This document shows, one piece after another, positions 26,039-45,474 of a DNA stretch of 64,000 nucleotides. Source of the stretch: Cytophagales bacterium Alg240-R148 (GTDB taxonomy: Bacteria > Bacteroidota > Bacteroidia > Cytophagales > Cyclobacteriaceae); NCBI GenBank assembly GCA_900537185.1, contig LS999830.1:47440-111439 (forward strand), written 5' to 3'. The position numbers and the translations under genes are program-made. The notes beneath the pieces are model-generated. The model was not told the origin of the DNA. It ran no database searches and saw only the letters and a list, made by a program, of their open reading frames with translations. The stretch's first letter is position 1. Every line of letters begins with the position of its first letter.

Positions 26039-26680
26039 TTGCGTCCAAAGAAGCAATCGAGTATATTGCTGTTCATGCAAAAGAATAAGAAAGCAGTGAT
26101 AACAGGAGATGTGATCAACTCCAGAGCAGGTAATATGCAAGACTGGAACCAACCATTAAAAATGGTGTTGCAACAGTATGGTCAAAACCCAGGGGATTGG
26201 GAAATGTATAGAGGGGATAGTTTTCAACTGGCCATGCCACCGGAACAGGCTCTTTTTGCAGCCATACACATCAAGGCTGCTATCAAGCAAATTAAAAATT
26301 ATGATGTGAGAATGGCCATAGGGGTAGGAGAAGAACGAGAAGTGTCCAAGACAATTACAGAATCAAACGGAACAGCTTATGTCTATTCAGGGACCAGTTT
26401 TGACCAACTTAAAAATAAAACGTTGGCTTTTAAATCCGGCCACAAAGAATTAACAATAGTATTAAATTTAATGATTAATTTGGCTATGTTGGTGGCTAAT
26501 CAATGGAGTAATACGGTGGCTGGCGTAATAAAGAAGTCCATGGAGCACCCTGAACTTACACAAAAGCAACTTGCGCAATTGCTCGGGAAGTCCCAAAGCA
26601 GCATCAGCGAAGCCTTAAAAAGGGGAGGGTTTGATGAAATAATGAAGTTAAACGATTTTTACCAGTCCCAAATTTTTTAA
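26039..26680 (+). CDS. SatD-family-like protein (tentative)
   Basis: About 200-aa soluble protein immediately upstream (2-nt gap) of a DUF3307-like membrane protein. This pairing is characteristic of SatD/DUF3307 loci. The family call is by recall. Confidence 0.35.
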   Translation: MRPKKQSSILLFMQKNKKAVITGDVINSRAGNMQDWNQPLKMVLQQYGQNPGDWEMYRGDSFQLAMPPEQALFAAIHIKAAIKQIKNYDVRMAIGVGEEREVSKTITESNGTAYVYSGTSFDQLKNKTLAFKSGHKELTIVLNLMINLAMLVANQWSNTVAGVIKKSMEHPELTQKQLAQLLGKSQSSISEALKRGGFDEIMKLNDFYQSQIF

Positions 26681-26682
26681 CC

Positions 26683-27405
26683 ATGAGTGTATTTTTATTA
26701 AAACTTTTAATCGCCCATTTTTTAGGCGATTTTGTGTTGCAACCAGATCGGTGGGTACAGGAGAAATTGAAATACAAACACAAATCTGTTTATATGTATG
26801 CCCATTTACTGGTGCATGGAGGGGTGTTGCTGTTGTTGTTGCAATTTGAAATGAAGTATTGGGGTGCAATTGGTGCAGTAATTTTGAGCCATTTTGTTAT
26901 AGATTGGATAAAGCTGAGCTTAAATGAACGGGCCAACAAACAATTGCTTTTTGTGCTAGACCAAGTTGCCCACCTACTGGTTATTGTTGTTTTGGCTTCG
27001 ATTTACGAGCCATTTAAATTTAGTGTTGATTTTTTACTTACCAAACAATCTCTATTGCTGATCATGGCCTTGATCTGTGTTACGTTTGTGGCATCAGTTG
27101 TGATGAAAGTAATTATGGGGAAGTGGGATTTGGATGAAGATGATGCCAACGACTCACTAAACAATGCTGGCAAGTATATTGGAATGCTGGAGCGACTTTT
27201 TGTATTTGGGTTTATTTCAATAGGCCAATGGCAAGCCATCGGGTTGCTCATAGCTGCTAAGTCGGTGTTTCGTTTTGGCGATCTTTCAAGGGCAAGGGAT
27301 CGAAAACTAACAGAGTATATCTTGATCGGGACCTTGCTTAGTTTCGGGATTGCCATGTTGCTAGGAATAGGGTATCAATATGCGGTAAAGCAATGGATTA
27401 ATTAA
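26683..27405 (+). CDS. DUF3307-like polytopic membrane protein
   Basis: N-terminus 'LLIAHFLGDFVLQ' with His-rich TM helices. 240 aa. Confidence 0.4.
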   Translation: MSVFLLKLLIAHFLGDFVLQPDRWVQEKLKYKHKSVYMYAHLLVHGGVLLLLLQFEMKYWGAIGAVILSHFVIDWIKLSLNERANKQLLFVLDQVAHLLVIVVLASIYEPFKFSVDFLLTKQSLLLIMALICVTFVASVVMKVIMGKWDLDEDDANDSLNNAGKYIGMLERLFVFGFISIGQWQAIGLLIAAKSVFRFGDLSRARDRKLTEYILIGTLLSFGIAMLLGIGYQYAVKQWIN

Positions 27406-28079
27406 TAGGCAGCCATTTCCTTCCACAACTTGTCAAATTCTCTTTGGTATTGTTTGATAGGGCCCTTTTCTCGACTTAATAAAATGTTTTCATGGTTGTA
27501 TTTTTCGGCACTTCTAGTCCAATTGTAACTTCCTGTGATTAAAATAGAACTGTCCATAATAGCAAATTTGTGGTGCATGTGGTTGCTGGTGTTGTCTATT
27601 TTTACTGGAAGTCCTTTATCGGCTAAATAATCGATATCCGATCCACGGTCTTCCGTTTTGTCGTTGTCGGTTATGATTTTTACAGAAATACCTTTTTTGT
27701 GCGCCGATACAATGCCGTCTCTGATGTCATTGTCGCTTATGGTGAAAACACAGATGTCTATGGTTTTGATGGCCGAATGGATGTTGTAAAGAATGGCATT
27801 TTTACAAGCGGATCCAGGGCTAAACAAAACATCAGACTCTTCTGTTTTGTTGTTTACTATAAGCGCTTTATTGGCTTCTTCCAGCCAACGGATTACCAAG
27901 CCATAATTGTCCGAATTTACATGTTCGTTGGCGATATCAAACACTTGCCCTCGAATAAAATTGATTTGGTGTTGGTCCAAGCCTTCATTTTTGATCATGG
28001 ACTTGAGGTTTCTTTTTTCAGCCCTGCTAAACAACTGGTCTTCTATGCTCTCTTTAATGTGGTTGATAATGTCGTCCAT
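27402..28079 (-). CDS. phospholipase D-family (single HKD; Nuc/endonuclease-like) protein with an N-terminal domain of about 90 aa of unknown function
   Basis: HKD motif 'HMHHKFAIMD' followed by 'GSYNWTRSAEKYNHENI' (the HxK(x4)D(x6)GSxN pattern). Confidence 0.7.
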   Translation of the reverse strand: MDDIINHIKESIEDQLFSRAEKRNLKSMIKNEGLDQHQINFIRGQVFDIANEHVNSDNYGLVIRWLEEANKALIVNNKTEESDVLFSPGSACKNAILYNIHSAIKTIDICVFTISDNDIRDGIVSAHKKGISVKIITDNDKTEDRGSDIDYLADKGLPVKIDNTSNHMHHKFAIMDSSILITGSYNWTRSAEKYNHENILLSREKGPIKQYQREFDKLWKEMAAY

Positions 28080-28083
28080 GGCG

Positions 28084-28902
28084 TTATAGTAGTTGTGCTA
28101 GTTTTGTTTGAATGTCTTGTATTTGGTTTTCTAAAATCATAACCTTTTCTTCTAACATTTTAGGAGGGTTTAAATAGGTGCTAAAGGCACCCTTAACAAC
28201 CCAAAGTTCGGTAATTTCCTTTACAACAAATGTTTTGTCCTGGTAATTGGGGTCGTCACAAGCAAATATTAATTCTTTTTTGCCCACCTGTTTGAGCCTT
28301 TTGGTGGTAATGTCCTCTTTGTCGACTATTACATAAACTGCTCCTTCTTGTAGTTGCTCGGCTAGGACGTCCACATGTTGGCACAATAGAATGTCGCCAT
28401 GGTGCAATCCATTTTGGTGGTATTCCATTTCACTGCCATTCAACTCAAAAGCCCTGCTGTTGCCTTTGAAATTTACAGGTAATTGAATGCTAGGCAAGTT
28501 GTTTATGAAATCTTTACTCTTGTAATTAACAATGTATTCTATGTAGTAATCTTCCTTCACCAAGTGGATGCCGCCCACCTTGTCTGCCTTTTTTATCTCT
28601 GTCTTGAAATGGTGGGCTTGGTCCATTTTCTGATTGAGAATATTGAAATGATAAAGTTCGTTTGTAGATAATTCCTTACTTAACAAAATGTCAATTGACA
28701 AGCCAAAATAATTAGCCATTTGAATAATAGTCTCAATTTTAGGTTCAGCTCTTCCTTCTTCATAAGCCCCAACACTACCTCTGTTTAGATCGAAAATTTC
28801 CGCTAATTTAGCCTGACTGAGCTTTTTAGCTGTTCTTATCTTCTTTATATTTTTACCTATGTGTGACATAATTTTAAAATTAATTGCTAATTTTTTTTGC
28901 AA
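28084..28902 (-). CDS. XRE-family HTH transcriptional repressor fused to an S24 (LexA/CI-like) autopeptidase domain
   Basis: - N-terminal HTH_XRE ('KKIRTAKKLSQAKLAEIFDLNRGSVGAYEEG').
- The C-terminus aligns with the LexA catalytic region: 'NGSEME...GDILLCQH' matches 'KGDSMI...GDLLAVH' (Ser) and 'TTKRLKQVGKKELIF' matches 'VTVKRLKKQGNKVELL' (Lys). Confidence 0.7.
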   Translation of the reverse strand: MQKKLAINFKIMSHIGKNIKKIRTAKKLSQAKLAEIFDLNRGSVGAYEEGRAEPKIETIIQMANYFGLSIDILLSKELSTNELYHFNILNQKMDQAHHFKTEIKKADKVGGIHLVKEDYYIEYIVNYKSKDFINNLPSIQLPVNFKGNSRAFELNGSEMEYHQNGLHHGDILLCQHVDVLAEQLQEGAVYVIVDKEDITTKRLKQVGKKELIFACDDPNYQDKTFVVKEITELWVVKGAFSTYLNPPKMLEEKVMILENQIQDIQTKLAQLL

Positions 28903-28922
28903 TTCTAAAACTTTTAGTAACT

Positions 28923-28936
28923 TGTTTACGTAAACA
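28923..28936. promoter_or_regulatory. perfect 14-bp palindrome TGTTTACGTAAACA; candidate operator about 20 bp upstream of the repressor start codon
   Basis: Perfect inverted repeat read directly in the divergent promoter region between the XRE-S24 repressor gene (-) and the YbjN-like/PspA locus (+). Confidence 0.4.
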
Positions 28937-29055
28937 TAATTAAAATCTTACATAAATTACGAACATAAACAGAAAATGAAACAAAATTTTAGAGCACCGC
29001 CGAACTTTTTTATATGAATTAAATCAAATATATAAATATGCTGAAATTAAATATT

Positions 29056-29063
29056 TAAATTTG
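29056..29063 (+). promoter_or_regulatory. candidate Bacteroidota -7 promoter element (TAAATTTG) for the YbjN-like/PspA operon
   Basis: Matches the TAnnTTTG consensus about 43 nt upstream of the ATG at 29106. Confidence 0.25.
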
Positions 29064-29105
29064 ATAACAACAATGAAAACTTTTGTAATCAAAACATAAA
29101 CAACC

Positions 29106-29501
29106 ATGAACAATTACTTTGCTAAGGTTAAGGACTATCTAATGGACCTGGAATATGACATTTCCTATGAAAACGAAGAAGACGGTGTGATTGTGGTGGA
29201 AAGTGAATCAAATGGAATAAAAAACTTGGTCTTAGGCGTGGCAGACCCTTTGTTGATCATAGAACAATTTATATTTGAAATTCACAACCCATCTCAAGAC
29301 ATTTACAAACAACTCATGATCAAGAGCCGGGACATCATCCACGGAGCGTTTGTATTAGATGAGACAGGCTCTAAGGTTATCTTTAGAAATACACATGAAT
29401 TAGAGAATCTTGATTTGAATGAAATAGAGGCCACATTTAACTCGCTGGCTTTGTTGTTAGGGGAATACTCAAATGAATTAATCGAATTATCTGAAAATTA
29501 A
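29106..29501 (+). CDS. YbjN/DUF2170-like (T3SS-chaperone-like fold) protein
   Basis: 131-aa acidic protein. Its size and pattern ('YLMDLEYDISYENEEDGVIVVE') resemble YbjN-family proteins. It sits immediately upstream of PspA, as with E. coli yjfI-yjfJ. Confidence 0.45.
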   Translation: MNNYFAKVKDYLMDLEYDISYENEEDGVIVVESESNGIKNLVLGVADPLLIIEQFIFEIHNPSQDIYKQLMIKSRDIIHGAFVLDETGSKVIFRNTHELENLDLNEIEATFNSLALLLGEYSNELIELSEN

Positions 29502-29514
29502 ACTACATAAAAAG

Positions 29515-30237
29515 ATGAACATATTTAAAAGAATATTCAAAATAGGAGAGGCGGAAGCACATTCGGCAATTGACAAATTGGAAGATCCAATTAAATTGAC
29601 AGAACAGGGGATTAGAGACTTGAAAGCAGATTTGGATAAAAGTTTGCAGGCATTGGCCGAAGTTAAAGCCATGGGCATCCGTTCTAAGAATGAAGTGAAA
29701 ACGAACCAAAGCAAGGCTAAGGATTACGAAAATAAGGCCATGTTGTTGCTTAAAAAAGCCGAATCTGGCGATATTTCTGCATCCGAGGCCGATCGTTTGG
29801 CCAGTGAGGCATTAGTAAAAAAGGCCGAGCATGAAGGCCACACGGCAAGAGCCAAAGAAGAACAAGATCGCTTTGAAAAAAATGTTTCGCAGTTAGATAC
29901 CAACGTTAAGAGAATTCGTTCTACCATATCCCAATATGAAAACGAATTAAAAACGTTGAAGGCCAGGGTAAAAGTGAGTTCTGCAACTAAAAAGTTGAAC
30001 AAACAAATGGCCCAAATCGATGGGTCGAGCACTGTGTCGATGTTGGAAAGAATGAAGGAAAAGGTAGCTGAAGAAGAAGCATTGGCTGAATCTTATGGCG
30101 AAATCGCGAACGAAAGCAAGTCTGTAGACGACGAAATTGACAAGGCGTTAGAAGGTGGTGTGGCAGAAGCCAGTGCCGCAGATAGTTTGGCCGCTTTAAA
30201 AGCCAAATTGAATAAAGATAAAAACAAAGAGGAGTAG
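29515..30237 (+). CDS. PspA/IM30 (Vipp1/LiaH) family membrane-stress protein
   Basis: N-terminus 'MNIFKRIFKIGEAEAHSAIDKLEDPIKL...' followed by a long coiled-coil. 240 aa. This is the canonical PspA/IM30 architecture. Confidence 0.85.
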   Translation: MNIFKRIFKIGEAEAHSAIDKLEDPIKLTEQGIRDLKADLDKSLQALAEVKAMGIRSKNEVKTNQSKAKDYENKAMLLLKKAESGDISASEADRLASEALVKKAEHEGHTARAKEEQDRFEKNVSQLDTNVKRIRSTISQYENELKTLKARVKVSSATKKLNKQMAQIDGSSTVSMLERMKEKVAEEEALAESYGEIANESKSVDDEIDKALEGGVAEASAADSLAALKAKLNKDKNKEE

Positions 30238-30278
30238 TCCTCTTTGTTTACCCAAAACTTAAACTTTAAATAACTACT

Positions 30279-30908
30279 ATGAAAGAATTGTTTGAAGCGG
30301 CTATGGCTTCCTATAACATTGCACCAACTTTTTTAATGCTATTTGTGTCTTTTTATTGGATCATAGTCATGTTTGGAGCAATAGATATGGATGCCTTGGA
30401 TATAGACATTGATTTGGATGCAGATTTGGACGCAGACGCAGATGTCGAAATCGGAGGAGTGGCTTCAACGCTTTCATTTTTTAACATAGGGCACATGCCC
30501 TTTATGGTGTTTTTAAGTTTTTGGGCATTGCCAGTATGGGTCATTGCCATATTGTCCAACCATTACCTAGGGAATACCAGTTTGCTGATAGGCCTGGCTT
30601 TGTTAATTCCCAATTTTATTGTGTCATTATTTGTTGCAAAAATACTGACCACCCCCATTGCCAAATTTTTTATGAAACTCAAAAGGGAAGATGAAGCAGT
30701 CCGCCCAGTTGGTAAAATGTGCACCGTGATATTACCAATTGTGGAAGACAAAATAGGTCAAGCCGAAATCAAAGTTAACGGAACTTCGGTTTTAATCAGT
30801 GCCAAAACCAAAGATGGCTCCAGCATGCTAAAAGGAGATACTGCCTTGGTTATTGAGCATCAGAAGGAAAAAAATATATTCATAATTGAATCATACTCAA
30901 CAAAATAA
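30279..30908 (+). CDS. NfeD-like (YqiJ-like) membrane protein with a C-terminal OB-fold domain
   Basis: TM helices, an acidic 'DIDIDLDADLDADADVEIGG' stretch, and a C-terminal beta-rich block 'GQAEIKVNGTSVLISAKTKDGSSMLKGDTALVI'. It is immediately upstream of a flotillin gene. Confidence 0.6.
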   Translation: MKELFEAAMASYNIAPTFLMLFVSFYWIIVMFGAIDMDALDIDIDLDADLDADADVEIGGVASTLSFFNIGHMPFMVFLSFWALPVWVIAILSNHYLGNTSLLIGLALLIPNFIVSLFVAKILTTPIAKFFMKLKREDEAVRPVGKMCTVILPIVEDKIGQAEIKVNGTSVLISAKTKDGSSMLKGDTALVIEHQKEKNIFIIESYSTK

Positions 30909-30917
30909 CTAATTCAA

Positions 30918-33083
30918 ATGATAGAGAATCTTGGAATAATAGGTCTTATTTTTATAGTCGGAGTAACATTTGCGTTGCTGGTAATGCTTGCTAGGATGTA
31001 TAGGAAAGCGCTACAAGGAGAAGCCTTGGTCAAAACGGGTTTTGGAGGCACAAAAGTGAATTTTAACGGCATGATAGTACTTCCGGTTATTCATAAATTA
31101 GAAGTAATGGACATTACGGTTAAAACCATTGTAATTTCCAGAACAGCCAGTGATGGCCTGGTTTGTAAAGACAACATGCGAGCCGATATAAAAGTAACTT
31201 TCTTTGTAAGGGTTAACCAAACCCATGAAGATGTCAAACAGGTAGCACAGTCCATTGGGTGCCACCGTGCATCGGATCAGGTGGCATTAGAAGGGTTCTT
31301 TGATGCTAAATTTTCAGAAGCCCTTAAAACGGTAGGTAAGCAGTTTGATTTTGTAGAATTGTACAACTCAAGAGATGACTTCAAAACGCAAATTTTGAAC
31401 ATTATTGGTACCGATTTGAACGGATATGTATTGGACGATTGTGCCATTGATTATTTGGAACAAACGCCTATGAGTTCTATGAATGAAGACAACATCTTGG
31501 ATTCAGAAGGTATTAAAAAAATCATTCAATTAACATCGGAGCAAAAAATTCAATCCAACTTAATCCAAAGGGAAAAAGAGAAAACCATTACCAAGCAAGA
31601 TGTGGAAGCACGAGAAACGGTATTGGAATTGGAAAGGCAGTTGGCAGAGACAGAAGCCAAACAAAGAAGAGAAGTGCACTCGGTACAAGCACGTGAAGAA
31701 GCAGAAACCGATAAGGTAAGGGAAGAAGAACGTTTGAAGGCCGAAAGGGCCAGAATAACAACAGAAGAGGAACTACAGGTGGCCGAAGAGAACAAACTAA
31801 GAGAAGTTGTCATTGCTCAGAAAAATAAAGAACGGGCCGATGCGGTGGAAACAGAAAGGGTGCAACAAGCCCAAATGTTGGAAGCAACTGAAAAGGAGAA
31901 ACTCGTAGCTTTGGCTCAAATATCAAAGGAGAAGGCTTTAGAAGAGGAGCGCAAAAACATACAAGATGTAATAAGAGAGCGGGTTTCAATAGAAAAAACT
32001 GTGGTGGAAGAAGAGGAAAGTATGAAGAACATCAAGGCCTTTTCTGAAGCAGACAGAACTAAGAAAGTAGCGATTACTTTGGCGGAAAAAGATGCAGAAG
32101 AGGCATTAGTGAAAGAGATTAAGAGTGCTGAAGCAGCAAAGAATGCTTCGGAACACTTGGCTAAAAAAATACTTATCGATGCCCAAGCAGAAGAAACTGC
32201 TGCCGTGCATTTAGCAGAATCTAAGAAAACTATGGCAGATGCACAAGCCTCAGAAGCAGCAGCTATTGGGATGTCGGAGGCGCAAGTAATGGAAGCCAAA
32301 GCAGCGGCCTTAGAAAAAGAAGGGGATGCGCAAGCGTCTGTTATTGAAGCCAAAGCAGAGGCTGAAGCAAAAGGCATTGCCATGAAAGGCGAAGCAGAAG
32401 CACAAGCCAACGAGAAAAAAGGATTTGCGGATGCTAAAGTGAACAAAGAAAAAGGAGAAACTGAAGCGCATATCATCGACATTACGGCAGACGCCGAAGA
32501 AAAAAGAGGATTGGCAGAAGCCAAAGTGATGGCAGAGAAATTCTCAGCCGATGCAGAAGGCATCAAGGAGAAAGCCAACGCAATGAAGCAGTTGGATGGA
32601 GTAGGCCAGGCCCACGAAGAGTTTAAGCTGAAGTTGGCCATGGAGAAAGAAGTTGAATTGGCACGCATCGAAATTCAAAAAGAAATTGCAGAAGCACAAG
32701 CCCATGTTATCTCAGAAGCACTTAAAGCAGCCAATATTGATATCGTAGGAGGAGAGACCATGTTCTTTGACCAAATTGTTGGTTCCATCACAAAAGGTAA
32801 ATCAGCAGATCGTCTGGTGCAAAGCAGCGAAGTACTCACCGATGTCAAGGACACTTTCTTTTCAACCGAAACTGGGGGCAACTTTAAAGACAAACTAAGG
32901 CAATTTGTGGATCAATTTGGAGTATCAACGGAAGATGTTAGAAACTTGAGCATCTCTGCTTTGTTACTGAAACTAACCAGCCAAGCAAACGATGAAGGTT
33001 CTCGGGGTGTGTTGAAACAATTGGGTGTATTGGCCGAGTCGTTGGGCATCTCAGGAAACCCTGCAAGTAGTTTAGGCTTATAA
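30918..33083 (+). CDS. flotillin-family (SPFH/band-7, YqiK-like) protein with a long E/A/K-rich coiled-coil
   Basis: N-terminal TM, SPFH core ('VKTIVISRTASDGLVCKDNMRADIKVTFFVRV'), then about 350 aa of EA-repeat coiled coil. Confidence 0.8.
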   Translation: MIENLGIIGLIFIVGVTFALLVMLARMYRKALQGEALVKTGFGGTKVNFNGMIVLPVIHKLEVMDITVKTIVISRTASDGLVCKDNMRADIKVTFFVRVNQTHEDVKQVAQSIGCHRASDQVALEGFFDAKFSEALKTVGKQFDFVELYNSRDDFKTQILNIIGTDLNGYVLDDCAIDYLEQTPMSSMNEDNILDSEGIKKIIQLTSEQKIQSNLIQREKEKTITKQDVEARETVLELERQLAETEAKQRREVHSVQAREEAETDKVREEERLKAERARITTEEELQVAEENKLREVVIAQKNKERADAVETERVQQAQMLEATEKEKLVALAQISKEKALEEERKNIQDVIRERVSIEKTVVEEEESMKNIKAFSEADRTKKVAITLAEKDAEEALVKEIKSAEAAKNASEHLAKKILIDAQAEETAAVHLAESKKTMADAQASEAAAIGMSEAQVMEAKAAALEKEGDAQASVIEAKAEAEAKGIAMKGEAEAQANEKKGFADAKVNKEKGETEAHIIDITADAEEKRGLAEAKVMAEKFSADAEGIKEKANAMKQLDGVGQAHEEFKLKLAMEKEVELARIEIQKEIAEAQAHVISEALKAANIDIVGGETMFFDQIVGSITKGKSADRLVQSSEVLTDVKDTFFSTETGGNFKDKLRQFVDQFGVSTEDVRNLSISALLLKLTSQANDEGSRGVLKQLGVLAESLGISGNPASSLGL

Positions 33084-33280
33084 ACTTGATTTACAGCAGA
33101 AATAATTGAACTGTAAAACTGCGCATGCGCAAACATGAAACAACTCCCGGTGATGGCCGGCACCACTGGGAGTTTGTATAGTCCTCAAGGTTTTGAGGTA
33201 TCAGGAGGCAGCCATTCAAATAAGTTGAATTGAGCTGGCTTTACACAGGAAGTATTTTTAACCGTCTAAAACTCATTGTT

Positions 33281-33502
33281 ATGAAATCTGACGTTCAAAT
33301 ACACCACCAAGCCAAGATTATGATGGCCGTGTTGGTATTGTGTTTTCCTTTGTTGCTCGGGTCGGCTTTTGTACTCAAAAATGACAGTTTGGTGTCATCC
33401 AAACGCAAAAAGGAACACGTTGATAAATACAGTGGTTATGCCGCAATAATTTGCAGCAGCCCACTCGCTTTTTTAATCACAAAGAAAAAACTCGCAAAGT
33501 AA
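33281..33502 (+). CDS. small two-TM membrane protein (73 aa) directly upstream of the giant ATPase. Its stop is 1 nt before the ATPase start codon.
   Basis: Internal-Met start MKSDVQIHHQAKIMMAVLVLCFPLLLGSAFVL, with hydrophobic spans. The longer ORF from 33230 is less likely. Confidence 0.35.
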   Translation: MKSDVQIHHQAKIMMAVLVLCFPLLLGSAFVLKNDSLVSSKRKKEHVDKYSGYAAIICSSPLAFLITKKKLAK

Positions 33503-33503
33503 T

Positions 33504-36500
33504 ATGTCCGAAGACCAATCAACACATAAAGATCAACATTTAGAAGGTGGTACGTATGAAGTACTACAAACCAGGTTGCAAGCGAGCAGCCAAAAGCTTC
33601 GAGATCAGTTGAACTTGCTAAATGATGATCGGAAGAAAGTTTTTGGATCGATTGAAACGGCTCTTTCAGGAACAGAAAGGGTAACTACGGAACACAATTG
33701 TATACCATGGGACATGGTGCCCATTGGCAAACAATTTATTTTCGGATACAATGTTCATATTGGTTTAAAAACTGAAACTACCGTAGAGGATGTCTTTTCT
33801 GTATACCGGTATGAAGACCATGTATTCCATAAAGAATCGATGGATCTGGTTAATAATGCGACGTTCTACGAGGATTTTCAGAAACTTTATAAATATTATA
33901 AAAACACCCATTTTGTTCGCTTCGCTGAAAGGGGCAATAACCTTTTTATGGTTTTTAGAATTGGAAAAGATGTAGCCGATATAAAAACCTTTAAATGGGA
34001 AGTGCAGGGTAGTAAATTGGTATACAAGGGCAATCGAAGCGACCATGAATTTGAGTACCCAGCGCAATTTGATTTCGAATGGAAAAAATGTACCAGAGAG
34101 AATTACAGAGAAGGCCGGTTTTCTCATATCTCGATCGAAAATAAAGTGTTTGTAGAAACTCTGGGTGGCGATTTAACCATTAAAATTGAGGACAATACCG
34201 ATTCTGGGAAGGGTATTTATAGTGAGCCTGTAGACCACAAAGACCAAACATTGGACGATGCCGAAGTGTATTACTCTGTTTTGGGCAATGTGATTTTACT
34301 TAAAATAAGGCCATATCAAGAACTACCACGTTTTTTTGTGTTTAATTCTAAATTAGGAGAAGCCAAAAGAATAGATGAATTAAAAGACTCTTGTATTTTA
34401 TTGCCAGACGACCACGGCATTATTTTTACAAACGGCTACTATTTGCAAACTGGTGAATTCAAAAAGTTTGAAAACGATTTGGAAAGCATGATGTTCGAAA
34501 AGCGCATTGCAGCACCAAATGGTGAGGATTACTTGTATATTTTTTACAATAGATTGTCTGGAACTTATTTGCTTTTGCATTATAATTTAATTGCACAAAA
34601 AGCAGAAAATCCTACCATTTGCCACGGGTATTCTATTTTCGAAAATGGAGAAATGTGTTTGTTCAGAGCAGATGAAGAACAAAAGAAACACCACGCCATT
34701 CAAATATGGCAAACGCCTTATACTGGAGCAGATTATCAGGCAGATACGAGCCATGATTCATATTTGTTTAAAATTGGCAACAAAGACATTGTTAGGGCCA
34801 TGGCAGAATGCCATGAAATACTGACCCTTATTGGCAAGGAAGATTCTTATGCCAATTTGTACCTTGATTTAATCAAACAAGCACAAGACATTCTAGACAG
34901 CTACCATTGGTTGGCCAAAAAAGAAGTGCACCAGGTCAACATTCCTTTGGTGGAGATCAAAGATACTGCCGAATTGGCCGTAGAGGAGTTTGAAAAGGTA
35001 ATCAAAATAAAACAAAATACTTCTCAGAAAATTGCAACTGTTTCTGAAATGGCAGAAACGTTGATTAAAAACATTAAAAAAACTCGAGCCAAATCGATCA
35101 ACGATTATGTATTGAATTTGGCTGAATTGAGAAAGGTAAGAGGCGAAGTAATCTCGTTAAAAGAACTGCGGTATACGGACTTTGAACTAATCGAACAGTA
35201 TGAAAGACAACTAAAAGAATTCAACGACACTACGTCGCAAAAGTGCGTGTCCTTTTTACTGAAAGAAGAAGCTTTGCAGCCTTATGCAGAAAAAGTAGAA
35301 GAGCTCAATCAAAACATAGAAGCAGTTGCGAAGGTAATTGATGCTGATAAAACGGAAGAAAACATCAACCAAGTAGCAGGAGAATTGGAAATGTTGATTG
35401 ACATTGTAGGCAACCTGGATATTGAGGATGCTACGCAGACTACTAAAATAATAGACAACATATCAGAAATTTATGCCCACTTTAACCAACTGCGCGCTGC
35501 GCTTAAAAAGAAACGCAAAGAACTGCTCGGTGTAGAAGGCAAGGCTGCTTTTAATGCACAAATGAAGTTAGTAGACCAGGGCATTATCAATTATTTGGAT
35601 GTTTGTGATACACCTGAGAAATGCGATGAGTTTCTAACAAAACTGATGGTGCAATTAGAGGAATTGGAAGCAAAGTTTTCTGAATTCGACGAATACATAG
35701 AAAAAATATCGGTTAAAAGAGAAGATATTTACAATGCGTTTGAAAATAAAAAGCTGAACCTAGTAGAAGCAAAAAACAAACGCGCTAATAATTTATTAGA
35801 GGCTGCCAACAGAATTATTAAGGCCATTCAAAGCCGTCTATCTCGTTTTACTACTGTAAAAGAGATTAATGGTTATTTTGCAGCAGATGTAATGATTGAA
35901 AAAGCACGTTCCATTATTTCAGAATTGGAAGAGATGGGCGATACAGTCAAATCAGAAGATATTCGCAGCCGATTAAAAACTGCAAAAGAAGATGCAGTAA
36001 GACAATTAAAGGACAAATCTGAGCTCTATGTAGAAGGGGCCAATATTATCAAGTTTGGTAAACATCAATTTACCGTCAATACCCAGTCCCTGGATCTGAC
36101 CATCGTTAACAAGGGCGAAAACATGTATTTTCATTTAACAGGTACCAATTTCTTTGAACCCATTCAAGACGAAGAATTTACTTCTTTGCGCCATGTGTGG
36201 GACCAGCAATCGGTGTCTGAAAACGATGAGATTTACAAGGCAGAATACTTGGTGTACCAATTGTACAAAGCCATGGAAGCCAAAGAATTGGAACACACGT
36301 TGGATTCCCTCTTTAATGCAACAGAAGAAGAAATTCAAGACCTTGTGTCGCAGTTTATGTCGGTACGTTTTAATGAGGGGTATGTAAAAGGAGTACACGA
36401 CTACGATGCTGCGCTGTTGTTTAGGGCGCTGATCAACATTGTTCATTCGGCCGATTTGTTGCGTTTCTCAAGTAGATCAAGGGCTTTAGCGGCAATGTGG

Positions 36501-38420
36501 TGGAAAACCATTGCTGGAACAGAAGAGAAACAAGTGTTGAACCAACAACTAAAAGGAGCAGGGCTGATTTTAAAAGTATTTCCGGAAAGCGATGAGTTTG
36601 ACGAAATTATAGAAAGCATCCAAAAAAGCATTGAAAATTTTGTTCAAGACGCAGGCATTTTTAGCAAAGAGCTTAGCGAAGAGGCAGCAGAATATTTATT
36701 CTTAGAAATTTCTAGAGGAGATAAGTTTGTTATAGATAAAGTGGCAGACGACTTTCTTGGTGGGTTCAACCAGTACCTTAAAGAAGCTAAAGCAAAGAAG
36801 ATGTATGAAGAATCCTTAAAAGGATTAGAAGGGCCTGTTCTGCGGTTCCACCAAATAAAAAACTGGGTCAGTGCGTATTTTAAATTGCATGGTACCACAC
36901 AATGGCAGTCGTATATTGAAGAAACATCTGTTTTGCTTTTAACCAGTGATTACATCAGTTCGCAAGTAGTACACGTTTCTCTGTTTAATGAATTGGAAGG
37001 GTTAAAAGGAGACCATACCATACTTGAGGATTCTAAATACAAGCTTGATTTTAATGGCTTTGTACAAAAGCTTACACACTACGATAAGGTAGTGAAGCCA
37101 CAGTTCGAAGCGTTTCAAGAATTGAAAAAAGAATTGACCCATGGGTATACCGAATCTTTGAGGCTAAACGAATTCAAACCTAGGGTGATGGCTTCTTTTG
37201 TTAGAAACAAACTCATAGACGAAGTGTATTTACCTATGATCGGAGCCAATTTAGCCAAACAAATAGGTGCGGCAGGAGACCAAAAGAGAACAGACTTAAT
37301 GGGACTTTTGTTATTGATATCTCCTCCTGGTTATGGTAAAACAACATTAATGGAATATTTAGCCAATCGATTGGGTATAATATTCATGAAAATAAATGGT
37401 CCAGCATTGGGCCACGACGTGGTGGCAATCGATCCGGCTCAAGCACCCAATGCAGGAGCCAAAGAAGAGCTGAATAAACTGAATCTTGCTTTTGAAATGG
37501 GAGACAATGTGATGATTTATTTGGATGACATCCAGCACTGTAACCCAGAGTTTTTACAAAAGTTCATATCGCTTTGCGATGCCCAGCGGAAAATTGAAGG
37601 AGTCTATAAGGGCAAGAGCAAAACCTATGATTTTAGAGGTAAAAAGGTGTGTGTGGTGATGGCAGGTAACCCTTATACTGAAAGTGGGGATAAATTTAGA
37701 ATTCCGGATATGTTGACCAACAGGGCCGATATATACAATTTAGGAGATATAGTAGGAGGCTCAGACCTTGCATTTAATCAAAGTTATGTTGAGAATTGTC
37801 TGACCTCCAATACTGTTTTGGCAAAATTGGCAGGCAAAAGTCAGAAAGATGTGCACGCAATGATCAAAATAGCAGAAACAGGCAGTAGGGAAGGTGTTGA
37901 TTTTGAGGTTAACCACAGTGCGGAAGAAGTTAAAGAATACATCAATGTATTAGAAAAACTGTTAAAAGTAAGAGATGTTATTTTAAAAGTGAACCAAGCC
38001 TATATATTGTCAGCTGGCCAATCCGATGCATACAGAACCGAACCTGCATTTAAATTGCAAGGCTCATACCGCGACATGAATAAAATAGCAGAAAAGATCG
38101 TTCCAGTAATGAACGAAGAAGAGTTGCAACATTTGATAGACAACCATTATAAGAGCGAATCACAGACTTTAACAAGCAATGCGGAGGCCAATTTGCTCAA
38201 ATTTAAGGAGATGATTGGTACGATGACTGCAACTGAAAAGGACCGTTGGGACGAAATTGTAACTGCCTTTATGAAGCAACAAAAAATGGCAGGATATGGC
38301 GAAAACAACCAGGTAGGTTTGGTGGTAGATCAAATGGCTGGTATTTCTAAGAACCTCAATGGCATCCGGGAAGAAATGTTGCTTTTAAATTTAACGCAAA
38401 AGAACAAACACGATGAGTGA
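33504..38420 (+). CDS. giant (1638 aa) protein. It has an N-terminal beta-rich region, a central helical/coiled-coil region and one C-terminal AAA+ ATPase domain.
   Basis: Walker A 'LLLISPPGYGKTTLMEYLANRLGI' (nt 37324-37346). Walker B 'NVMIYLDDIQHCNPEF' (nt 37512-37530). The spacing after the P-loop ('G.DVVAIDP...AGAKEEL') is reminiscent of Lon/HCLR-clade AAA+. No protease domain was seen. Confidence 0.7.
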   Translation: MSEDQSTHKDQHLEGGTYEVLQTRLQASSQKLRDQLNLLNDDRKKVFGSIETALSGTERVTTEHNCIPWDMVPIGKQFIFGYNVHIGLKTETTVEDVFSVYRYEDHVFHKESMDLVNNATFYEDFQKLYKYYKNTHFVRFAERGNNLFMVFRIGKDVADIKTFKWEVQGSKLVYKGNRSDHEFEYPAQFDFEWKKCTRENYREGRFSHISIENKVFVETLGGDLTIKIEDNTDSGKGIYSEPVDHKDQTLDDAEVYYSVLGNVILLKIRPYQELPRFFVFNSKLGEAKRIDELKDSCILLPDDHGIIFTNGYYLQTGEFKKFENDLESMMFEKRIAAPNGEDYLYIFYNRLSGTYLLLHYNLIAQKAENPTICHGYSIFENGEMCLFRADEEQKKHHAIQIWQTPYTGADYQADTSHDSYLFKIGNKDIVRAMAECHEILTLIGKEDSYANLYLDLIKQAQDILDSYHWLAKKEVHQVNIPLVEIKDTAELAVEEFEKVIKIKQNTSQKIATVSEMAETLIKNIKKTRAKSINDYVLNLAELRKVRGEVISLKELRYTDFELIEQYERQLKEFNDTTSQKCVSFLLKEEALQPYAEKVEELNQNIEAVAKVIDADKTEENINQVAGELEMLIDIVGNLDIEDATQTTKIIDNISEIYAHFNQLRAALKKKRKELLGVEGKAAFNAQMKLVDQGIINYLDVCDTPEKCDEFLTKLMVQLEELEAKFSEFDEYIEKISVKREDIYNAFENKKLNLVEAKNKRANNLLEAANRIIKAIQSRLSRFTTVKEINGYFAADVMIEKARSIISELEEMGDTVKSEDIRSRLKTAKEDAVRQLKDKSELYVEGANIIKFGKHQFTVNTQSLDLTIVNKGENMYFHLTGTNFFEPIQDEEFTSLRHVWDQQSVSENDEIYKAEYLVYQLYKAMEAKELEHTLDSLFNATEEEIQDLVSQFMSVRFNEGYVKGVHDYDAALLFRALINIVHSADLLRFSSRSRALAAMWWKTIAGTEEKQVLNQQLKGAGLILKVFPESDEFDEIIESIQKSIENFVQDAGIFSKELSEEAAEYLFLEISRGDKFVIDKVADDFLGGFNQYLKEAKAKKMYEESLKGLEGPVLRFHQIKNWVSAYFKLHGTTQWQSYIEETSVLLLTSDYISSQVVHVSLFNELEGLKGDHTILEDSKYKLDFNGFVQKLTHYDKVVKPQFEAFQELKKELTHGYTESLRLNEFKPRVMASFVRNKLIDEVYLPMIGANLAKQIGAAGDQKRTDLMGLLLLISPPGYGKTTLMEYLANRLGIIFMKINGPALGHDVVAIDPAQAPNAGAKEELNKLNLAFEMGDNVMIYLDDIQHCNPEFLQKFISLCDAQRKIEGVYKGKSKTYDFRGKKVCVVMAGNPYTESGDKFRIPDMLTNRADIYNLGDIVGGSDLAFNQSYVENCLTSNTVLAKLAGKSQKDVHAMIKIAETGSREGVDFEVNHSAEEVKEYINVLEKLLKVRDVILKVNQAYILSAGQSDAYRTEPAFKLQGSYRDMNKIAEKIVPVMNEEELQHLIDNHYKSESQTLTSNAEANLLKFKEMIGTMTATEKDRWDEIVTAFMKQQKMAGYGENNQVGLVVDQMAGISKNLNGIREEMLLLNLTQKNKHDE

Positions 38421-38556
38421 TGTTGTAAAAATTGGGTTGTTGCTGGTGCTCTTAATTCTGGTGTTCAACTTTGTGTTCAAACTGGTGTTTAAAATTGGTC
38501 TGATCGTACTAATTGTATTAGGAATACTATATTTATTGAAGAAGGTAGCTAATTAA
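38413..38556 (+). CDS. unannotated 47-aa hydrophobic (two-TM) peptide. It overlaps the ATPase stop by 8 nt and ends 3 nt before the next gene.
   Basis: Translates to MSDVVKIGLLLVLLILVFNFVFKLVFKIGLIVLIVLGILYLLKKVAN. It is tightly packed between two genes with no room for a promoter or terminator. It falls below the ORF-track length cutoff. Confidence 0.35.
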   Translation: MSDVVKIGLLLVLLILVFNFVFKLVFKIGLIVLIVLGILYLLKKVAN

Positions 38557-38559
38557 TAA

Positions 38560-40131
38560 ATGAGGTACGTAGTTGGTTTTGTAATAGTGGTTTTCTGTTT
38601 AATAAATGCTGTATTTGCACAAGATATAGATAAAGATCCAATGTCATTTTGGAATTCAAAGCAAATTTTATTGGATAAGGGGCAATACGTGCAAAACCAA
38701 GATCTAATTGAAATTAGAAAGTTGCAGGACGAATTGAACAACAAATATAAAATTGACTTTCGTTTTATTGTTTCCTCTAAATGGAGTAGTGAAGTTAAAA
38801 AGGAACACAAAAAGTATATGGCCAAAAAAACGCTGGATAGAAGCAAAGTATATATGTTGGCCGTTGTTAGTATGGAGGAGGGACTTGTAGAATTGTACTG
38901 TTCCAATATTAATAAAGTGAACTTATTAGGTCCAGTAAATAGAATGTCACGCAGTTTTATAGAGGAGAATCTTAAAAAAGAACATAGTGCTTCTCTTGGA
39001 AAAGGCATTATATGGTTCCTATCTGCATTGGTTAAAAGCGGTAATTTGGATGCGGAATTTAATAAAAAAGAAGAAGCACTGTATGAGGAATACCTTAAAG
39101 GATATGATTTGTATAGATATTTCTATTTCTTTTGTTTGTTTTTTATCATTTGGCATAATAGGGGCTTAATTCTGCATTTTAAACACTATGGTTACAAGAT
39201 CGATGCCTACCCTTTAACTAGGTTGCCTGTTTTTTTTAGGAATTTTTTATGGTTAATCAATACTATTATAATTTATTGGGTTGCGTATAATAATGGCTAT
39301 TTTTACAACAATTTCGAACTTGCAATTGTAATTTTTTTGTTTGTCTCGGTTCCAGTTTATTATTTTAATATTACTTTTCTTTGTTTTATAACAGATCTGA
39401 TAGTTGTTTCAAGACAACCATTAAAACGGGATATTTCTAAAAACCTGTATCCTGCGGAGGTAAAACTGCTAATTAACCACAAAACCCCTGCCATAGAGAT
39501 GTTGGAGGCTCAGTTTTTTGAGTTGGTTTTAAACAACATATTGGTAATTGAGCCGCATGAAAAGTTGTACAAGAACGGAACTTGCAAACGCTATTTCTTG
39601 GTATGTCGGGGAGAAGAATTTGAAAACCACCCGAGTACTAAAATAGAAGAACCTTTTGTGTCGATTTTAAGAAATTTGGAACCAGGTGAGGGGATTTATT
39701 TCACCCACTACATCAACGCCGTTTTTAAAAATATACGAAGTTTAAAAACTTTTAAATACAACTTTGTGGCTAAGTCATTGGTTGAAAAGGGGTATATCAA
39801 CCCTTATCTATGGGCTTTTGGTATAATAAAAGTGAAAAATAAAGCACTTGCCTTTAAAAAAGACTACAAGCAGGTCAAAACTGAAGTAGGACTGAAAATT
39901 GAGAAGTCTTTGGAATCGGTTGTTAAGAATGCTTCAATACTAATAATTCTAGATAGTTTTACGAGTAGAATAAACCAAGCAAAAATAACAAATGCTGTAA
40001 CAATAGAAGGGGATCGGAGTAGCTTAAAATATCTAATCAATACAAATTTTGATTTTGAATCCATTGCTGCATTGTTTAAAAATACAGGGCCTGGGGAGTT
40101 CAAAGCTAATAAATGGCCAGGTACCTATTAA
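38560..40131 (+). CDS. membrane protein with an N-terminal secreted TPM-like domain, a multi-TM core and a C-terminal cytoplasmic domain
   Basis: Signal peptide. The N-terminal about 170 aa are TPM-like ('DFRFIVSSKW...'), followed by Phe/Tyr-rich TM helices. 523 aa. Confidence 0.4.
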   Translation: MRYVVGFVIVVFCLINAVFAQDIDKDPMSFWNSKQILLDKGQYVQNQDLIEIRKLQDELNNKYKIDFRFIVSSKWSSEVKKEHKKYMAKKTLDRSKVYMLAVVSMEEGLVELYCSNINKVNLLGPVNRMSRSFIEENLKKEHSASLGKGIIWFLSALVKSGNLDAEFNKKEEALYEEYLKGYDLYRYFYFFCLFFIIWHNRGLILHFKHYGYKIDAYPLTRLPVFFRNFLWLINTIIIYWVAYNNGYFYNNFELAIVIFLFVSVPVYYFNITFLCFITDLIVVSRQPLKRDISKNLYPAEVKLLINHKTPAIEMLEAQFFELVLNNILVIEPHEKLYKNGTCKRYFLVCRGEEFENHPSTKIEEPFVSILRNLEPGEGIYFTHYINAVFKNIRSLKTFKYNFVAKSLVEKGYINPYLWAFGIIKVKNKALAFKKDYKQVKTEVGLKIEKSLESVVKNASILIILDSFTSRINQAKITNAVTIEGDRSSLKYLINTNFDFESIAALFKNTGPGEFKANKWPGTY

Positions 40132-40149
40132 AATTAATATAGGAAGAAA

Positions 40150-40854
40150 ATGAAAATACGGTTTAGTTTGTTTTTAATTTTAGCTTGTACATCTCTGCAT
40201 TTGCTGGGGCAAAAATTGGTGGTCGATCCACCGGCTTTAATACATGAAACAGATAAAAAGGAAATTAATGGAGCAATAAATCAAATTAGAGAGACCCATG
40301 GTATGGATGTGGCAATATGGGTTCGCGATTCTTTTGAAGTAGACATTAGTAATGAAAACAGGGAATTAATCAAAACCATATTGGATGTAAACCTGTATCT
40401 TAATGAAATGTTGGTGTTGGTAGACATGAGCAACAAACGTGCACAAGTATTAATCGGAAGACTCGACAGATTTGGATCCAAAGTTGATGTTTACCAATTA
40501 AATAGGAATTACCTATTATCCAACTTCCAAGAAACCAATTCTGTTTCAATGGGTAAAGCATTGTTCTGGATGTTAGAAGGGTTAGACAAAGAACTGAAGT
40601 TGGCCCAGTCTGTTGAAGCACAAATCATTGAGGAAGATTCTTCCTATGGCAGAGATTTTTGGAACTTTTTGTATCTTCTTCTCCCTTTTTTGCTGTTAAT
40701 TCTAGCTAGCAACTTTTACAGGTTGGCAACAAAAAATAAAGATGGTAATCGTTTAAACCTAAATTCGACTTATGGCATGAATACTTCCGTCAAAATAGCA
40801 TTGTGCATAACATTGTTATTTATTACTGGCTTTTTTGTTTTTATTTTGTTTTGA
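40150..40854 (+). CDS. TPM-domain (TLP18.3/Psb32/MOLO-1 family) protein with a C-terminal TM anchor
   Basis: Signal peptide. 'VVDPPALIHETDKKEINGAINQIRETHGMDVAIWV' resembles the TPM-domain N-terminus. C-terminal TM helices. Confidence 0.5.
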   Translation: MKIRFSLFLILACTSLHLLGQKLVVDPPALIHETDKKEINGAINQIRETHGMDVAIWVRDSFEVDISNENRELIKTILDVNLYLNEMLVLVDMSNKRAQVLIGRLDRFGSKVDVYQLNRNYLLSNFQETNSVSMGKALFWMLEGLDKELKLAQSVEAQIIEEDSSYGRDFWNFLYLLLPFLLLILASNFYRLATKNKDGNRLNLNSTYGMNTSVKIALCITLLFITGFFVFILF

Positions 40855-41088
40855 ACCTTGTGTATAGTACCCCAATTAGTTGTTTTTGGCTATTATGCCC
40901 TATTGGGTTGACTGTATATATTAAAAACAAACGATACAAAGGAAGTGCCGTTGGTGGTGCAAAAATTGTTGCAAATCCAAGGATTTCGGGATATGAATTG
41001 TGTGAAGTTCAATTTATGCAAATGCTAAAGGAAAATAAAGTTGGTTTATCATTGGTTTGAAAATAGATTAGGAGTGCACAAATACGAA

Positions 41089-41643
41089 ATGCGATTAACC
41101 AAAGGGGATAATTTTAGATTGGATGAAGAAGATTACCTGGAATATGTAATGCTGTCCTTTTTTAAGGATATTGAGGAAGAAGGAGTGGGCTATTATCCAG
41201 AACGATATTTTGAGCATTTACTTGAACATTTTGGAAGCTTTAAAACCTTTAAAAAACACTATGTTGGAGAATATGCAGTTACCCACGGTTGGATAAATAA
41301 AATATCTTGGTTGGCCAATTGGTATGTGGTAACGGACAAAGGAAAAGAACAACTCGGCGCTATAAAACTAAGGAAGAACAAAATGCAAAATTTGATGCAC
41401 AGGTTGAAAAATGAATCAAAATTTGAGGCTTTGAGAGAATTATCAGCGGATGTTGTGTTATTGGATGGATTTCATGGAAACGGTTGGTTCAATGATTTCG
41501 TTAAACTAATTAAAACGCATTCCTTGGATTGGATCAATGAAATAAACCTAGCAATGTTGTTCCAATATGAATTTCAATTTGCTTTTTTTGACGATTACTT
41601 TTATGACACTAGATTGGTTCTAGAATTAGAACCGGAGGAATAA
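41089..41643 (+). CDS. hypothetical cytoplasmic protein. An ATG start was chosen; the ORF track used an upstream TTG at 41041.
   Basis: Co-directional ORF of about 184 aa with no recognisable motif. Confidence 0.35.
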   Translation: MRLTKGDNFRLDEEDYLEYVMLSFFKDIEEEGVGYYPERYFEHLLEHFGSFKTFKKHYVGEYAVTHGWINKISWLANWYVVTDKGKEQLGAIKLRKNKMQNLMHRLKNESKFEALRELSADVVLLDGFHGNGWFNDFVKLIKTHSLDWINEINLAMLFQYEFQFAFFDDYFYDTRLVLELEPEE

Positions 41644-41659
41644 ATAAAAAAATAAGAAT

Positions 41660-42208
41660 ATGGGACTATTTGATTTTCTAAAGAAAAAAGAAACACCAAA
41701 GTACGATGTGACCAACTTGTCTATTAAAGACTTGGATCAAGGTTTTATCTTTGATTATGACATGAAATCATGGGTGGTCAAAGAAGTGTACCAATACGAT
41801 TGGGGAAACAACAATATTTCTAAGGAATTCTTAATTGATTCTGGAGAAGAGGTTGGTTTTTTGGGTATTGAAGATAAGGGAGAGCCATGGATAACTTTCA
41901 CAAAAACCATCAAAATTAGAGATTTAGGAACGGACATCATCGATAGAACGGTGGAAGCCAAAAGCCCTCCAAAAATTTTAGTCTACCAAGCAAAGGAATA
42001 CCATTTGCACAACGACAGTGCTGGTTATTTTAATGACATAACCAAAGGAACAGACGATTGGGAAGAGCTGATTGCATGGGAGTTGTACGACGATAATGAA
42101 GAAAATTTAATAGGTATAACCCAATGGGGAGAACGAGAATTTGATGCAGTGGCAGGAGTTGTAGTTAAGGAGTTTCAAATCTCCAATATAATTCCTGGTA
42201 CTGATTAA
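41660..42208 (+). CDS. DUF4178-like protein
   Basis: 182-aa soluble protein ('MGLFDFLKKK...DYDMKSWVVKEVYQYDWG...'). It sits in the DUF4178/DUF350/aminopropyltransferase neighbourhood that is recurrent across bacteria. The family call is by recall. Confidence 0.4.
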   Translation: MGLFDFLKKKETPKYDVTNLSIKDLDQGFIFDYDMKSWVVKEVYQYDWGNNNISKEFLIDSGEEVGFLGIEDKGEPWITFTKTIKIRDLGTDIIDRTVEAKSPPKILVYQAKEYHLHNDSAGYFNDITKGTDDWEELIAWELYDDNEENLIGITQWGEREFDAVAGVVVKEFQISNIIPGTD

Positions 42209-42260
42209 TATGATAACTTTAAATTAATGGTATATTTAGGTCAAATTTTACTCTAATAGG

Positions 42261-42983: not shown

Positions 42984-43004
42984 TAACCTTTAAAGATTAC
43001 ATTT

Positions 43005-43871: not shown

Positions 43872-43883
43872 CCAATAAGAATT

Positions 43884-45419: not shown

Positions 45420-45474
45420 AGCCACGGCAATTGTAACTTTTATAGAATACTTCAATAAAATAAAAATACGCTAC

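Follow-up and report, generated by a model that had tools for sequence, protein, structure and literature searches.

The 64,000-nt stretch of the genome of Cytophagales bacterium Alg240-R148 analysed here, which we call the window (GenBank assembly GCA_900537185.1, contig LS999830.1, positions 47,440 to 111,439), carries on its minus strand two same-direction open reading frames (ORFs) separated by a 4-nt gap, which code for a regulator with the fold of the SOS repressor LexA and for a protein of the phospholipase D (PLD) family; divergently from them lies an operon for a CesT/Tir-like chaperone and PspA. Judging from its sequence, the regulator and the Bacteroidetes non-canonical LexA are paralogs, the regulator having lost the self-cleavage machinery and kept the fold, the recognition helix and the type of operator. 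We consider it probable that it works as a non-cleavable, autoregulated LexA paralog that serves the Psp module specifically, the PLD protein being a co-transcribed accessory effector. The locus is a variant that joins two known kinds of system, the Bacteroidetes LexA family and the CesT-PspA operons, and we read it as a membrane-stress module rather than the DNA-damage- or phage-inducible toxin module that an earlier note on this DNA, made from the letters alone, had seen in it.

Regulator family, cleavage residues and gene neighbourhood

The regulator gene spans 28084..28869 on the minus strand and encodes 261 amino acids (aa) from the ATG at 28869. Its orthologues uniformly open with MS.IGKNIKK, which corresponds to this ATG in the window, and we therefore place the start there and not at the TTG at 28902 to which the ORF could be extended and from which the earlier note had derived a product of 272 aa; the extended ORF would engulf a conserved operator box. 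The PLD-family gene (27402..28079, minus strand, 225 aa) begins 4 nt past the regulator stop codon, so that the two-gene arrangement had been described correctly and both ORFs are real; the two genes are likely co-transcribed.

The regulator is made up of three parts, all given here on the minus strand. Residues 1-66 (28672..28869) form a XRE-type five-helix helix-turn-helix (HTH) domain, with an HTH_3 match over residues 8-62 (E 1.3e-12). Residues ~98-232 (28174..28578) form an S24-like beta domain, delimited by alignment with 29 canonical relatives and E. coli LexA and predicted to be catalytically dead, for which the match to Peptidase_S24 is borderline (24.4-25.7 bits, cut-off 23.3). Residues 237-260 (28090..28161) form a heptad-repeat helix, which is found in the AlphaFold2 model and in the alignment and weakly matches the CLZ leucine zipper; the same helix is present in the canonical clade described below and is therefore ancestral to the family. 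The AlphaFold2 model (predicted local distance difference test score, pLDDT, 79) matches lambda CI, 186 CI and LexA, and Foldseek gave template-modelling (TM) scores of 0.6-0.7 against LexA C-terminal domains, in agreement with the XRE HTH and S24 fold that had been read from the sequence.

In a neighbour-joining tree the regulators linked to PspA form one clade (31 sequences), sister to a clade that we call canonical (29 sequences, relatives below 33% identity from a metagenome scan); in the searches made the family was limited to Bacteroidota. An exact CTAA-N5-TTAG was found upstream of the regulator in 19 of 38 loci without a link to PspA, which are mostly canonical, and three of the six canonical loci examined are divergent from a Y-family polymerase gene. 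Because of these boxes and neighbours, we identify the canonical clade with the Bacteroidetes non-canonical LexA (Sanchez-Osuna et al. 2021, PMC8565304). The window regulator shares with that LexA the XRE-type HTH (PF01381), the S24 fold, the C-terminal helix and the recognition-helix sequence, the segment VGAYEEGRA.P being common to both clades, and also the occurrence of CTAA-N5-TTAG twice in its own promoter (in the window, once exactly and once with a single mismatch). Unlike it, the window regulator has neither the scissile Ala-Gly nor the Ser nucleophile, with the Lys base lost in most orthologues, it adjoins CesT-PspA operons and not dinB/umuDC-type genes, and it is predicted to lack the response to RecA*.

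The residues on which self-cleavage depends were compared between the two clades. All 29 canonical relatives carry K-A-[AS]-A-G-Y, G-D-S-M-L-P and K-R. The alignment is free of gaps from RAFE to M, where the window sequence RAFELNGSEMEY faces the canonical RAFEI.GDSMLP; it puts Ser146 at the canonical Asp position and Glu147 (28429-28431) at that of the nucleophile Ser, an assignment that comes from the sequence alignment and not from model coordinates. The residue-for-residue match to the LexA Ser/Lys site claimed before was thus off by one register for the Ser, and does not hold for the nucleophile or for the Ala-Gly bond, although Lys190 (28300-28302; position of LexA K156) is kept. S119 of E. 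coli LexA is paired with Glu149 by HMMER and with the Glu147 column by MAFFT, and by neither with Ser146. The position of the scissile Ala-Gly is occupied by Ile110-Glu111 (28537-28542). Across the PspA-linked clade, Ala at P1 is found in 2 of the 31 sequences and Gly at P1' in none (Glu in 20), the Ser nucleophile in 4 (Glu in 17, Asp in 6, Ala in 4) and the Lys base in 5 (Arg in 25), whereas each of these four residues is present in 29/29 canonical sequences. No member of the PspA-linked clade combines Ser and Lys (0/31), and Lys190 is evidently dispensable for this family. Since Glu147 replaces the Ser, Ile-Glu replaces the Ala-Gly and the Lys is mostly Arg in the orthologues, self-cleavage of the regulator appears unlikely on the strength of its sequence, and the RecA*-type cleavage earlier foreseen loses both its scissile bond and its nucleophile. 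The same fold is shared with LexA, lambda CI, UmuD and HdiR, from all of which the regulator differs by lacking the Ser of G-[DMN]-S-M and the Ala-Gly or Cys-Gly bond in the linker. A caution follows for annotation, as XRE-S24 proteins are not all cleavable 'LexA family' repressors, the name that NCBI gives to several of these orthologues.

What is conserved around the regulator was examined in 43 orthologous loci (regulator identity at least 33%, at least 700 nt of upstream sequence). A divergent pair of CesT-like and PspA genes lies beside the regulator in 38 of them, which strongly backs the link to the divergent Psp locus that the earlier note had considered plausible; of the other five, three are partial matches to the HTH alone, and two, L016 and L017, carry one and the same unlinked paralog. 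The pair was found beside none of the relatives below 33% identity (0/27 loci). The adjacency spans 32 to 100% identity in Cytophagales and Flavobacteriales, and it involves two types of operon, namely CesT-PspA-YqiJ-like-SPFH/Band-7-DUF3686 AAA+ ATPase (the window, L015, L019, L022) and CesT-PspA-DUF4178-x-DUF350-spermine-synthase-like (Fulvivirga ulvae L014, L018). CesT/Tir-PspA operons of both types have been described (Ravi et al. 2024, PMC11237479), without mention in that paper of an S24/LexA-type regulator, and we found in the literature no published link between the Bacteroidetes LexA family and CesT-PspA operons. The genes on the other flank of the regulator, away from cesT, differ between loci. 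In the window, L008, L011 and L061 the gene after the regulator is a PLD gene; among the 28 PspA-linked loci having enough downstream sequence it is there in 4 and absent in 24, and in most orthologous loci the regulator is monocistronic. Given the 38/43 synteny and the presence of PLD in 4/28, the conserved unit is the regulator with the divergent CesT-PspA genes, and the PLD gene is optional. An SOS repressor was apparently duplicated, stripped of its self-cleavage chemistry and shifted to another stress pathway with its DNA motif kept. The regulation of Psp systems is largely unknown outside Proteobacteria, Firmicutes and Actinobacteria, and Bacteroidota now have a specific candidate regulator with defined operator boxes.

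The unlinked paralog of L016/L017 (9001-9813, Flammeovirgaceae) is a member of the non-cleavable clade with 47% identity, in which GSEMEY is kept and which has no PspA neighbour. Behind it stand an unknown gene of 205 aa, a small gene of the HTH_34 family and genes for CreD, VanZ and an M23 peptidase, a context which suggests that the non-cleavable clade is able to attach to other envelope-related genes.

Predicted operator boxes in the regulator promoter

Alignment of 41 orthologous promoters identified three conserved elements, all within ~85 nt of the regulator ATG, the two strongest being copies of CTAA-N5-TTAG. At least one such box (with at most one mismatch) is present in 37 of 43 PspA-linked promoters, usually at -48 and -30. 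The predicted operator box 1 of the window, CTAAAACTTTTAG (28905..28917), matches CTAA-N5-TTAG exactly and forms a perfect palindrome of 13 bp at -48 from the ATG; orthologous promoters keep its position, and the changes seen in L019/L020 and L053 are symmetric (CCAAAAGTTTTGG). The predicted operator box 2, CTAATTTTTTTTG (28887..28899), reads CTAA-N5-TTTG, with one mismatch, at -30. It lies inside an imperfect inverted repeat, AATTGCTAA-N5-TTTGCAATT (28882-28904), and is the best-conserved element of the promoter (23.5 bits; family consensus TTGCTAAAAATTTTAGCAA). CTAA-N5-TTAG is the published LexA motif of Bacteroidetes, where the box in the promoter of the non-canonical LexA gene itself is either CTAA-N5-TTAG or GGA-N5-TCC (PMC8565304). 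With a recognition helix of this family, the window regulator would be expected to bind the two boxes; these overlap candidate Bacteroidetes -33/-7 elements, an arrangement that would fit autorepression.

The exact motif occurs five times in the window, against 1.4 expected. The four matches other than box 1 are all within coding sequence and were treated as chance, and not as operators.

The operator proposed in the earlier note was another sequence, the 14-bp palindrome TGTTTACGTAAACA. It does exist, at 28923..28936, and stands 54-67 nt ahead of the regulator ATG instead of about 20 bp from the start. The window has this single copy, which by itself is not remarkable statistically: 0.54 matches with at most two mismatches are expected by chance, and at least one match occurs in 42 of 100 shuffles. 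As a promoter element it scores 7.9 bits. Only its core TTTAC(G) is conserved (22/41 loci), the identical 14-mer is found in L055 only and no more than 3 of 41 loci preserve the dyad symmetry, so that the role of conserved operator passes from the palindrome to the two CTAA-N5-TTAG boxes; TGTTTACGTAAACA may serve as a promoter element or as an additional half-site. The centres of box 2, box 1 and the palindrome, at 28893, 28911 and 28929.5 (28887-28936), follow each other in steps of ~18 bp, and since ~18 bp is 1.7 helical turns, neighbouring sites lie on different faces of the DNA.

On the side of cesT, a candidate -7 box of the cesT-pspA promoter, TAAATTTG, is found at 29058..29065 on the plus strand, ~40 nt upstream of cesT, and is the sole conserved part in the alignment of cesT upstream regions from close relatives. 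The -7 consensus of Bacteroidetes promoters is TAnnTTTG, and we take TAAATTTG to be a perfect match to it. Direct control of cesT-pspA by the regulator is plausible from the gene order but goes beyond what the sequence shows, since the distance between the boxes and the -7 box of cesT varies widely between loci and further copies of the elements are not enriched on the cesT side. An Rfam scan of the intergenic region gave no match, and a scan for sigma-70 promoters and terminators, a promoter type which is wrong for this phylum, gave results no better than those from shuffled sequences.

The main alternative to a dedicated regulator is that the boxes are SOS boxes of the genome's canonical, cleavable LexA, the regulator-PLD unit being damage-inducible and the paralog acting as a competing non-inducible brake or as a tie between SOS and membrane stress. 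That the motif is the phylum's published LexA motif would be accounted for in this way, as would the recognition helix identical in both clades, and extensive paralogy and motif sharing have been reported in this group (PMC8565304). However, throughout the clade the boxes keep the same place in the promoter of the paralog itself, which is a hallmark of autoregulation, SOS genes adjoin the regulator in none of the 38 PspA-linked loci and a canonical LexA was not found within the 64-kb window; we consider this explanation unlikely. Slightly less probable again is a repressor that acts only locally, on its own gene and on any PLD gene behind it, and has no functional tie to Psp, the adjacency being an inherited gene order. 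The confinement of all conserved operator-like elements to the regulator-proximal ~85 nt, with no enrichment near cesT, speaks for it. Yet the adjacency persists over 32-100% identity in Cytophagales and Flavobacteriales and outlasts the exchange of the downstream operon type, while the other flank varies and the PLD gene is usually missing; moreover, such a repressor, being mostly monocistronic, would control itself alone.

In the middle of the AT-rich region between the regulator and cesT, at ~28995-29003, there is a G-rich patch (GGCGG or GGAGG on the regulator strand), found at the same relative position in L008, L011, L044, L047, L049, L050, L055, L062 and L071, and beside short hairpins in L044, L047 and L049. 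It could bind a further factor or belong to a structured leader of cesT.

The PLD-family protein and the proposed working of the module

The PLD protein has a PLDc_2 match with E 9.5e-30 and a single motif, H169-x-K171-x4-D176...G183-S-x-N186 (27522-27575, minus strand), of which H169, K171, D176, G183, S184 and N186 do not vary across 24 sequences, confirming the 225-aa protein with one HKD motif reported earlier. The motif belongs to the single-HKD catalytic domain (27417-27833, minus strand), preceded by an N-terminal four-helix bundle of ~80 residues (27855-28079, minus strand) which gave no family match; the earlier note had described this domain as unknown. The protein has the Nuc-type alpha/beta fold; its nearest structures are Zucchini/MitoPLD, Nuc and NucT, and the profile match to mouse MitoPLD has an E value of 4e-36. 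Like Zucchini/MitoPLD (PLD6), Nuc (pKM101) and NucT, it has one HxK(x4)D(x6)GSxN motif per chain with the catalytic residues intact, and by analogy with them it would form a homodimer with one active site and act as a phosphodiesterase, that is, a nuclease or a phospholipase. It differs from MitoPLD, which has a transmembrane anchor, and from Nuc, which has a signal peptide, in that its N-terminus is a soluble four-helix bundle, and from all three in being encoded beside a membrane-stress operon.

The full-length PLD family has more than 2,000 members, and the nearest homologues (51-56% identity, Cyclobacteriaceae) are stand-alone genes in an ordinary chromosomal context. In Hydrogenophaga (L004), a PLD gene directly follows the DUF3686 ATPase gene, and a PLD (HKD) hydrolase has been described in the CesT/PspA operon of some Proteobacteria (PMC11237479); in the window, unlike in those operons, the PLD gene is on the opposite strand, behind the regulator. 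Linkage in two phyla and in two gene orders argues that the PLD protein, a cytoplasmic enzyme of the Zucchini/MitoPLD/Nuc group with a single HKD motif, is functionally tied to the Psp system; we regard it as an optional accessory of that system and its SPFH and AAA+ components. As to its substrate, the membrane context and the similarity to MitoPLD make us lean, at somewhat under even chances, towards a phospholipid, for instance cardiolipin or phosphatidylglycerol converted by hydrolysis to phosphatidic acid at the stressed membrane. A role as a nuclease is less likely in this context, though still a serious candidate, as Nuc, NucT and Zucchini are nucleases and the protein is without a membrane anchor. 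A bacterial enzyme of the Zucchini/MitoPLD type tied to a membrane-remodelling operon in two phyla and two gene orders bears on the question of lipid versus nucleic-acid substrates for PLD6-type enzymes.

The distribution of the PLD gene also bears on the idea that the regulator is a self-cleaving repressor of the LexA/CI/HdiR type, whose RecA*-dependent or otherwise induced cleavage frees a PLD nuclease serving as toxin or defence effector. Such a repressor would have the S24 fold, the XRE HTH and the SOS-type CTAA-N5-TTAG boxes that are present here, Lys190 is retained, a Ser stands within the GSEME motif, and PADLOC reports weak matches of the PLD domain to the defence nucleases DrmC, MkoC and DpdK. 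Nevertheless, we hold this to be very unlikely: Ser146 is out of register with Glu147 in the nucleophile position, Ile-Glu stands for Ala-Gly, Ser and Lys occur together in no orthologue, the PLD gene is absent from 24/28 loci and the closest PLD proteins have no repressor or immunity partner, which together leave little of the damage- or phage-inducible nuclease/toxin module of the earlier note. PADLOC found no complete known anti-phage defence system, its matches (HTH, the PLD domain and mad2) being at domain level only. Also offered before, a remnant prophage immunity region, that is, a CI-like repressor with a phage-derived nuclease, was rejected as barely credible: the domain-level PHROG matches (repressor family phrog_4, E 7e-18; PLD-domain family phrog_12711, E 2e-28) and the occurrence of the catalytic PLD domain alone on phage contigs fit it, but two scans of viral contigs gave no orthologue, only regulator relatives of at most 29% identity and PLD catalytic domains without the N-terminal bundle, no integrase or phage structural gene was found among the genes scanned from ~6 kb upstream to 20 kb downstream of the pair and no tRNA gene in the window, and the same arrangement is chromosomal in many genomes, every related locus being a Psp locus.

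For the non-cleavable paralog dedicated to the Psp module we propose the following working. A dimer of the regulator, likely formed via the S24-like domain, would bind the two CTAA-N5-TTAG boxes at -48 and -30 and repress transcription from its own promoter, including that of the PLD gene where present, as motif conservation and the published binding specificity of the family suggest. As the regulator is predicted not to self-cleave, no response to RecA* would be expected. Being almost always divergent from CesT-PspA operons, and from operons of two types, it would be a dedicated controller of the membrane-stress module, or else a transcriptional output of it. The signal would probably come through a bound protein, PspA or the CesT-like chaperone acting as anti-repressor, a suggestion made by analogy; alternatively, a ligand could occupy the dead active-site cleft. 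By either route, membrane stress would be coupled to transcription. Relief by protein binding instead of cleavage has precedents in phage 186 CI, which is released by Tum and is among the best structural matches of the regulator, and in PspF and ClgR, both controlled by PspA; the analogy is functional only. ClgR of Mycobacterium is, like the window regulator, a XRE-type HTH regulator encoded with pspA, but has no S24 domain, and PspF of E. coli is an AAA+ activator. As a tentative and rather doubtful extension, a dead descendant of an SOS repressor would regulate the membrane-repair operons of PspA (a bacterial ESCRT-III-type protein) in Cytophagales and Flavobacteriales on SOS-type boxes, would be freed by binding of PspA or the CesT-like protein under membrane stress, and its Zucchini/MitoPLD-like enzyme would remodel phospholipids at the site of damage.

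Several points weigh against the dedicated, non-cleavable regulator as proposed. Its binding to the boxes is something that we infer, and the canonical LexA of the same genome is another possible binder of them. In position weight matrix scans of 37 intergenic regions, the half nearer to cesT showed no enrichment of further copies of the three promoter elements over shuffles, and the spacing between the boxes and the cesT promoter ranges from overlap (L032) to more than 200 bp. In the window regulator Lys190 is kept and Ser146 misses the register by one residue, the structural place of Glu147 is derived from sequence alignment alone, and an unconventional cleavage chemistry in this protein is formally conceivable. 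With regard to the effector, most PLD relatives of known activity are nucleases, and no membrane anchor is predicted.

The divergent cluster and flanking genes

The divergent cluster begins with the gene for the CesT/Tir-like chaperone (29106-29501; CesT_Tir_1, E 1.7e-52), directly followed by the PspA/IM30 gene (29515-30237; PspA_IM30, E 2.1e-45), and continues on the same plus strand with genes for a YqiJ-like membrane protein (30279-30908; weak YqiJ_N match, E 0.012), a 721-aa SPFH/Band-7 coiled-coil protein (30918-33083; Band_7, E 6.7e-12, in the N-terminal 260 aa) and a DUF3686-DUF7902-AAA+ ATPase (33504-38420; DUF3686, E 2e-183). This stretch, 29106-38420, matches in composition and order the CesT/Tir-PspA-band-7-AAA+-YqiJ operons of PMC11237479, and its gene order is repeated in L008, L011, L015, L019, L022, L049 and L050. 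Scanned whole, the 721-aa 'flotillin' gave no Pfam, NCBIfam or PDB sequence match, whereas its first 260 residues alone match Band_7/SPFH; apparently the long coiled-coil tail masks the match, and such proteins may be under-annotated.

The cluster extends further, and in this too it differs from the described operons: over 29106-45939 (plus strand) both CesT/PspA operon types are fused into one co-directional cluster of ~16 kb, in which a second CesT-PspA pair is not present. After the SPFH-ATPase part come unknown genes at 38560-40131, 40150-40854 (weak TPM match) and 41041-41643, then DUF4178, an unknown gene, DUF350, a gene for a 7TM/spermine-synthase-like protein and a CYTH gene.

On the other side of the pair, a SatD-family gene and a gene for a DUF3307 membrane protein (26039-27405, plus strand) converge on the PLD gene, with which the 3' ends overlap by 4 nt; this pair was seen beside PLD in none of the related loci. 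Between the ATPase gene and the next one, a small ORF coding for a very hydrophobic product (MSDVVKIGLLLVLLILVF...) is found at ~38415-38555 (plus strand) and holds one of the exact CTAA-N5-TTAG matches (38509-38521), probably by chance. The spermine-synthase-like protein (43884-45419, plus strand) is the source of the mad2 match in PADLOC (E 1.5e-18), which looks like a similarity due only to the shared methyltransferase fold.

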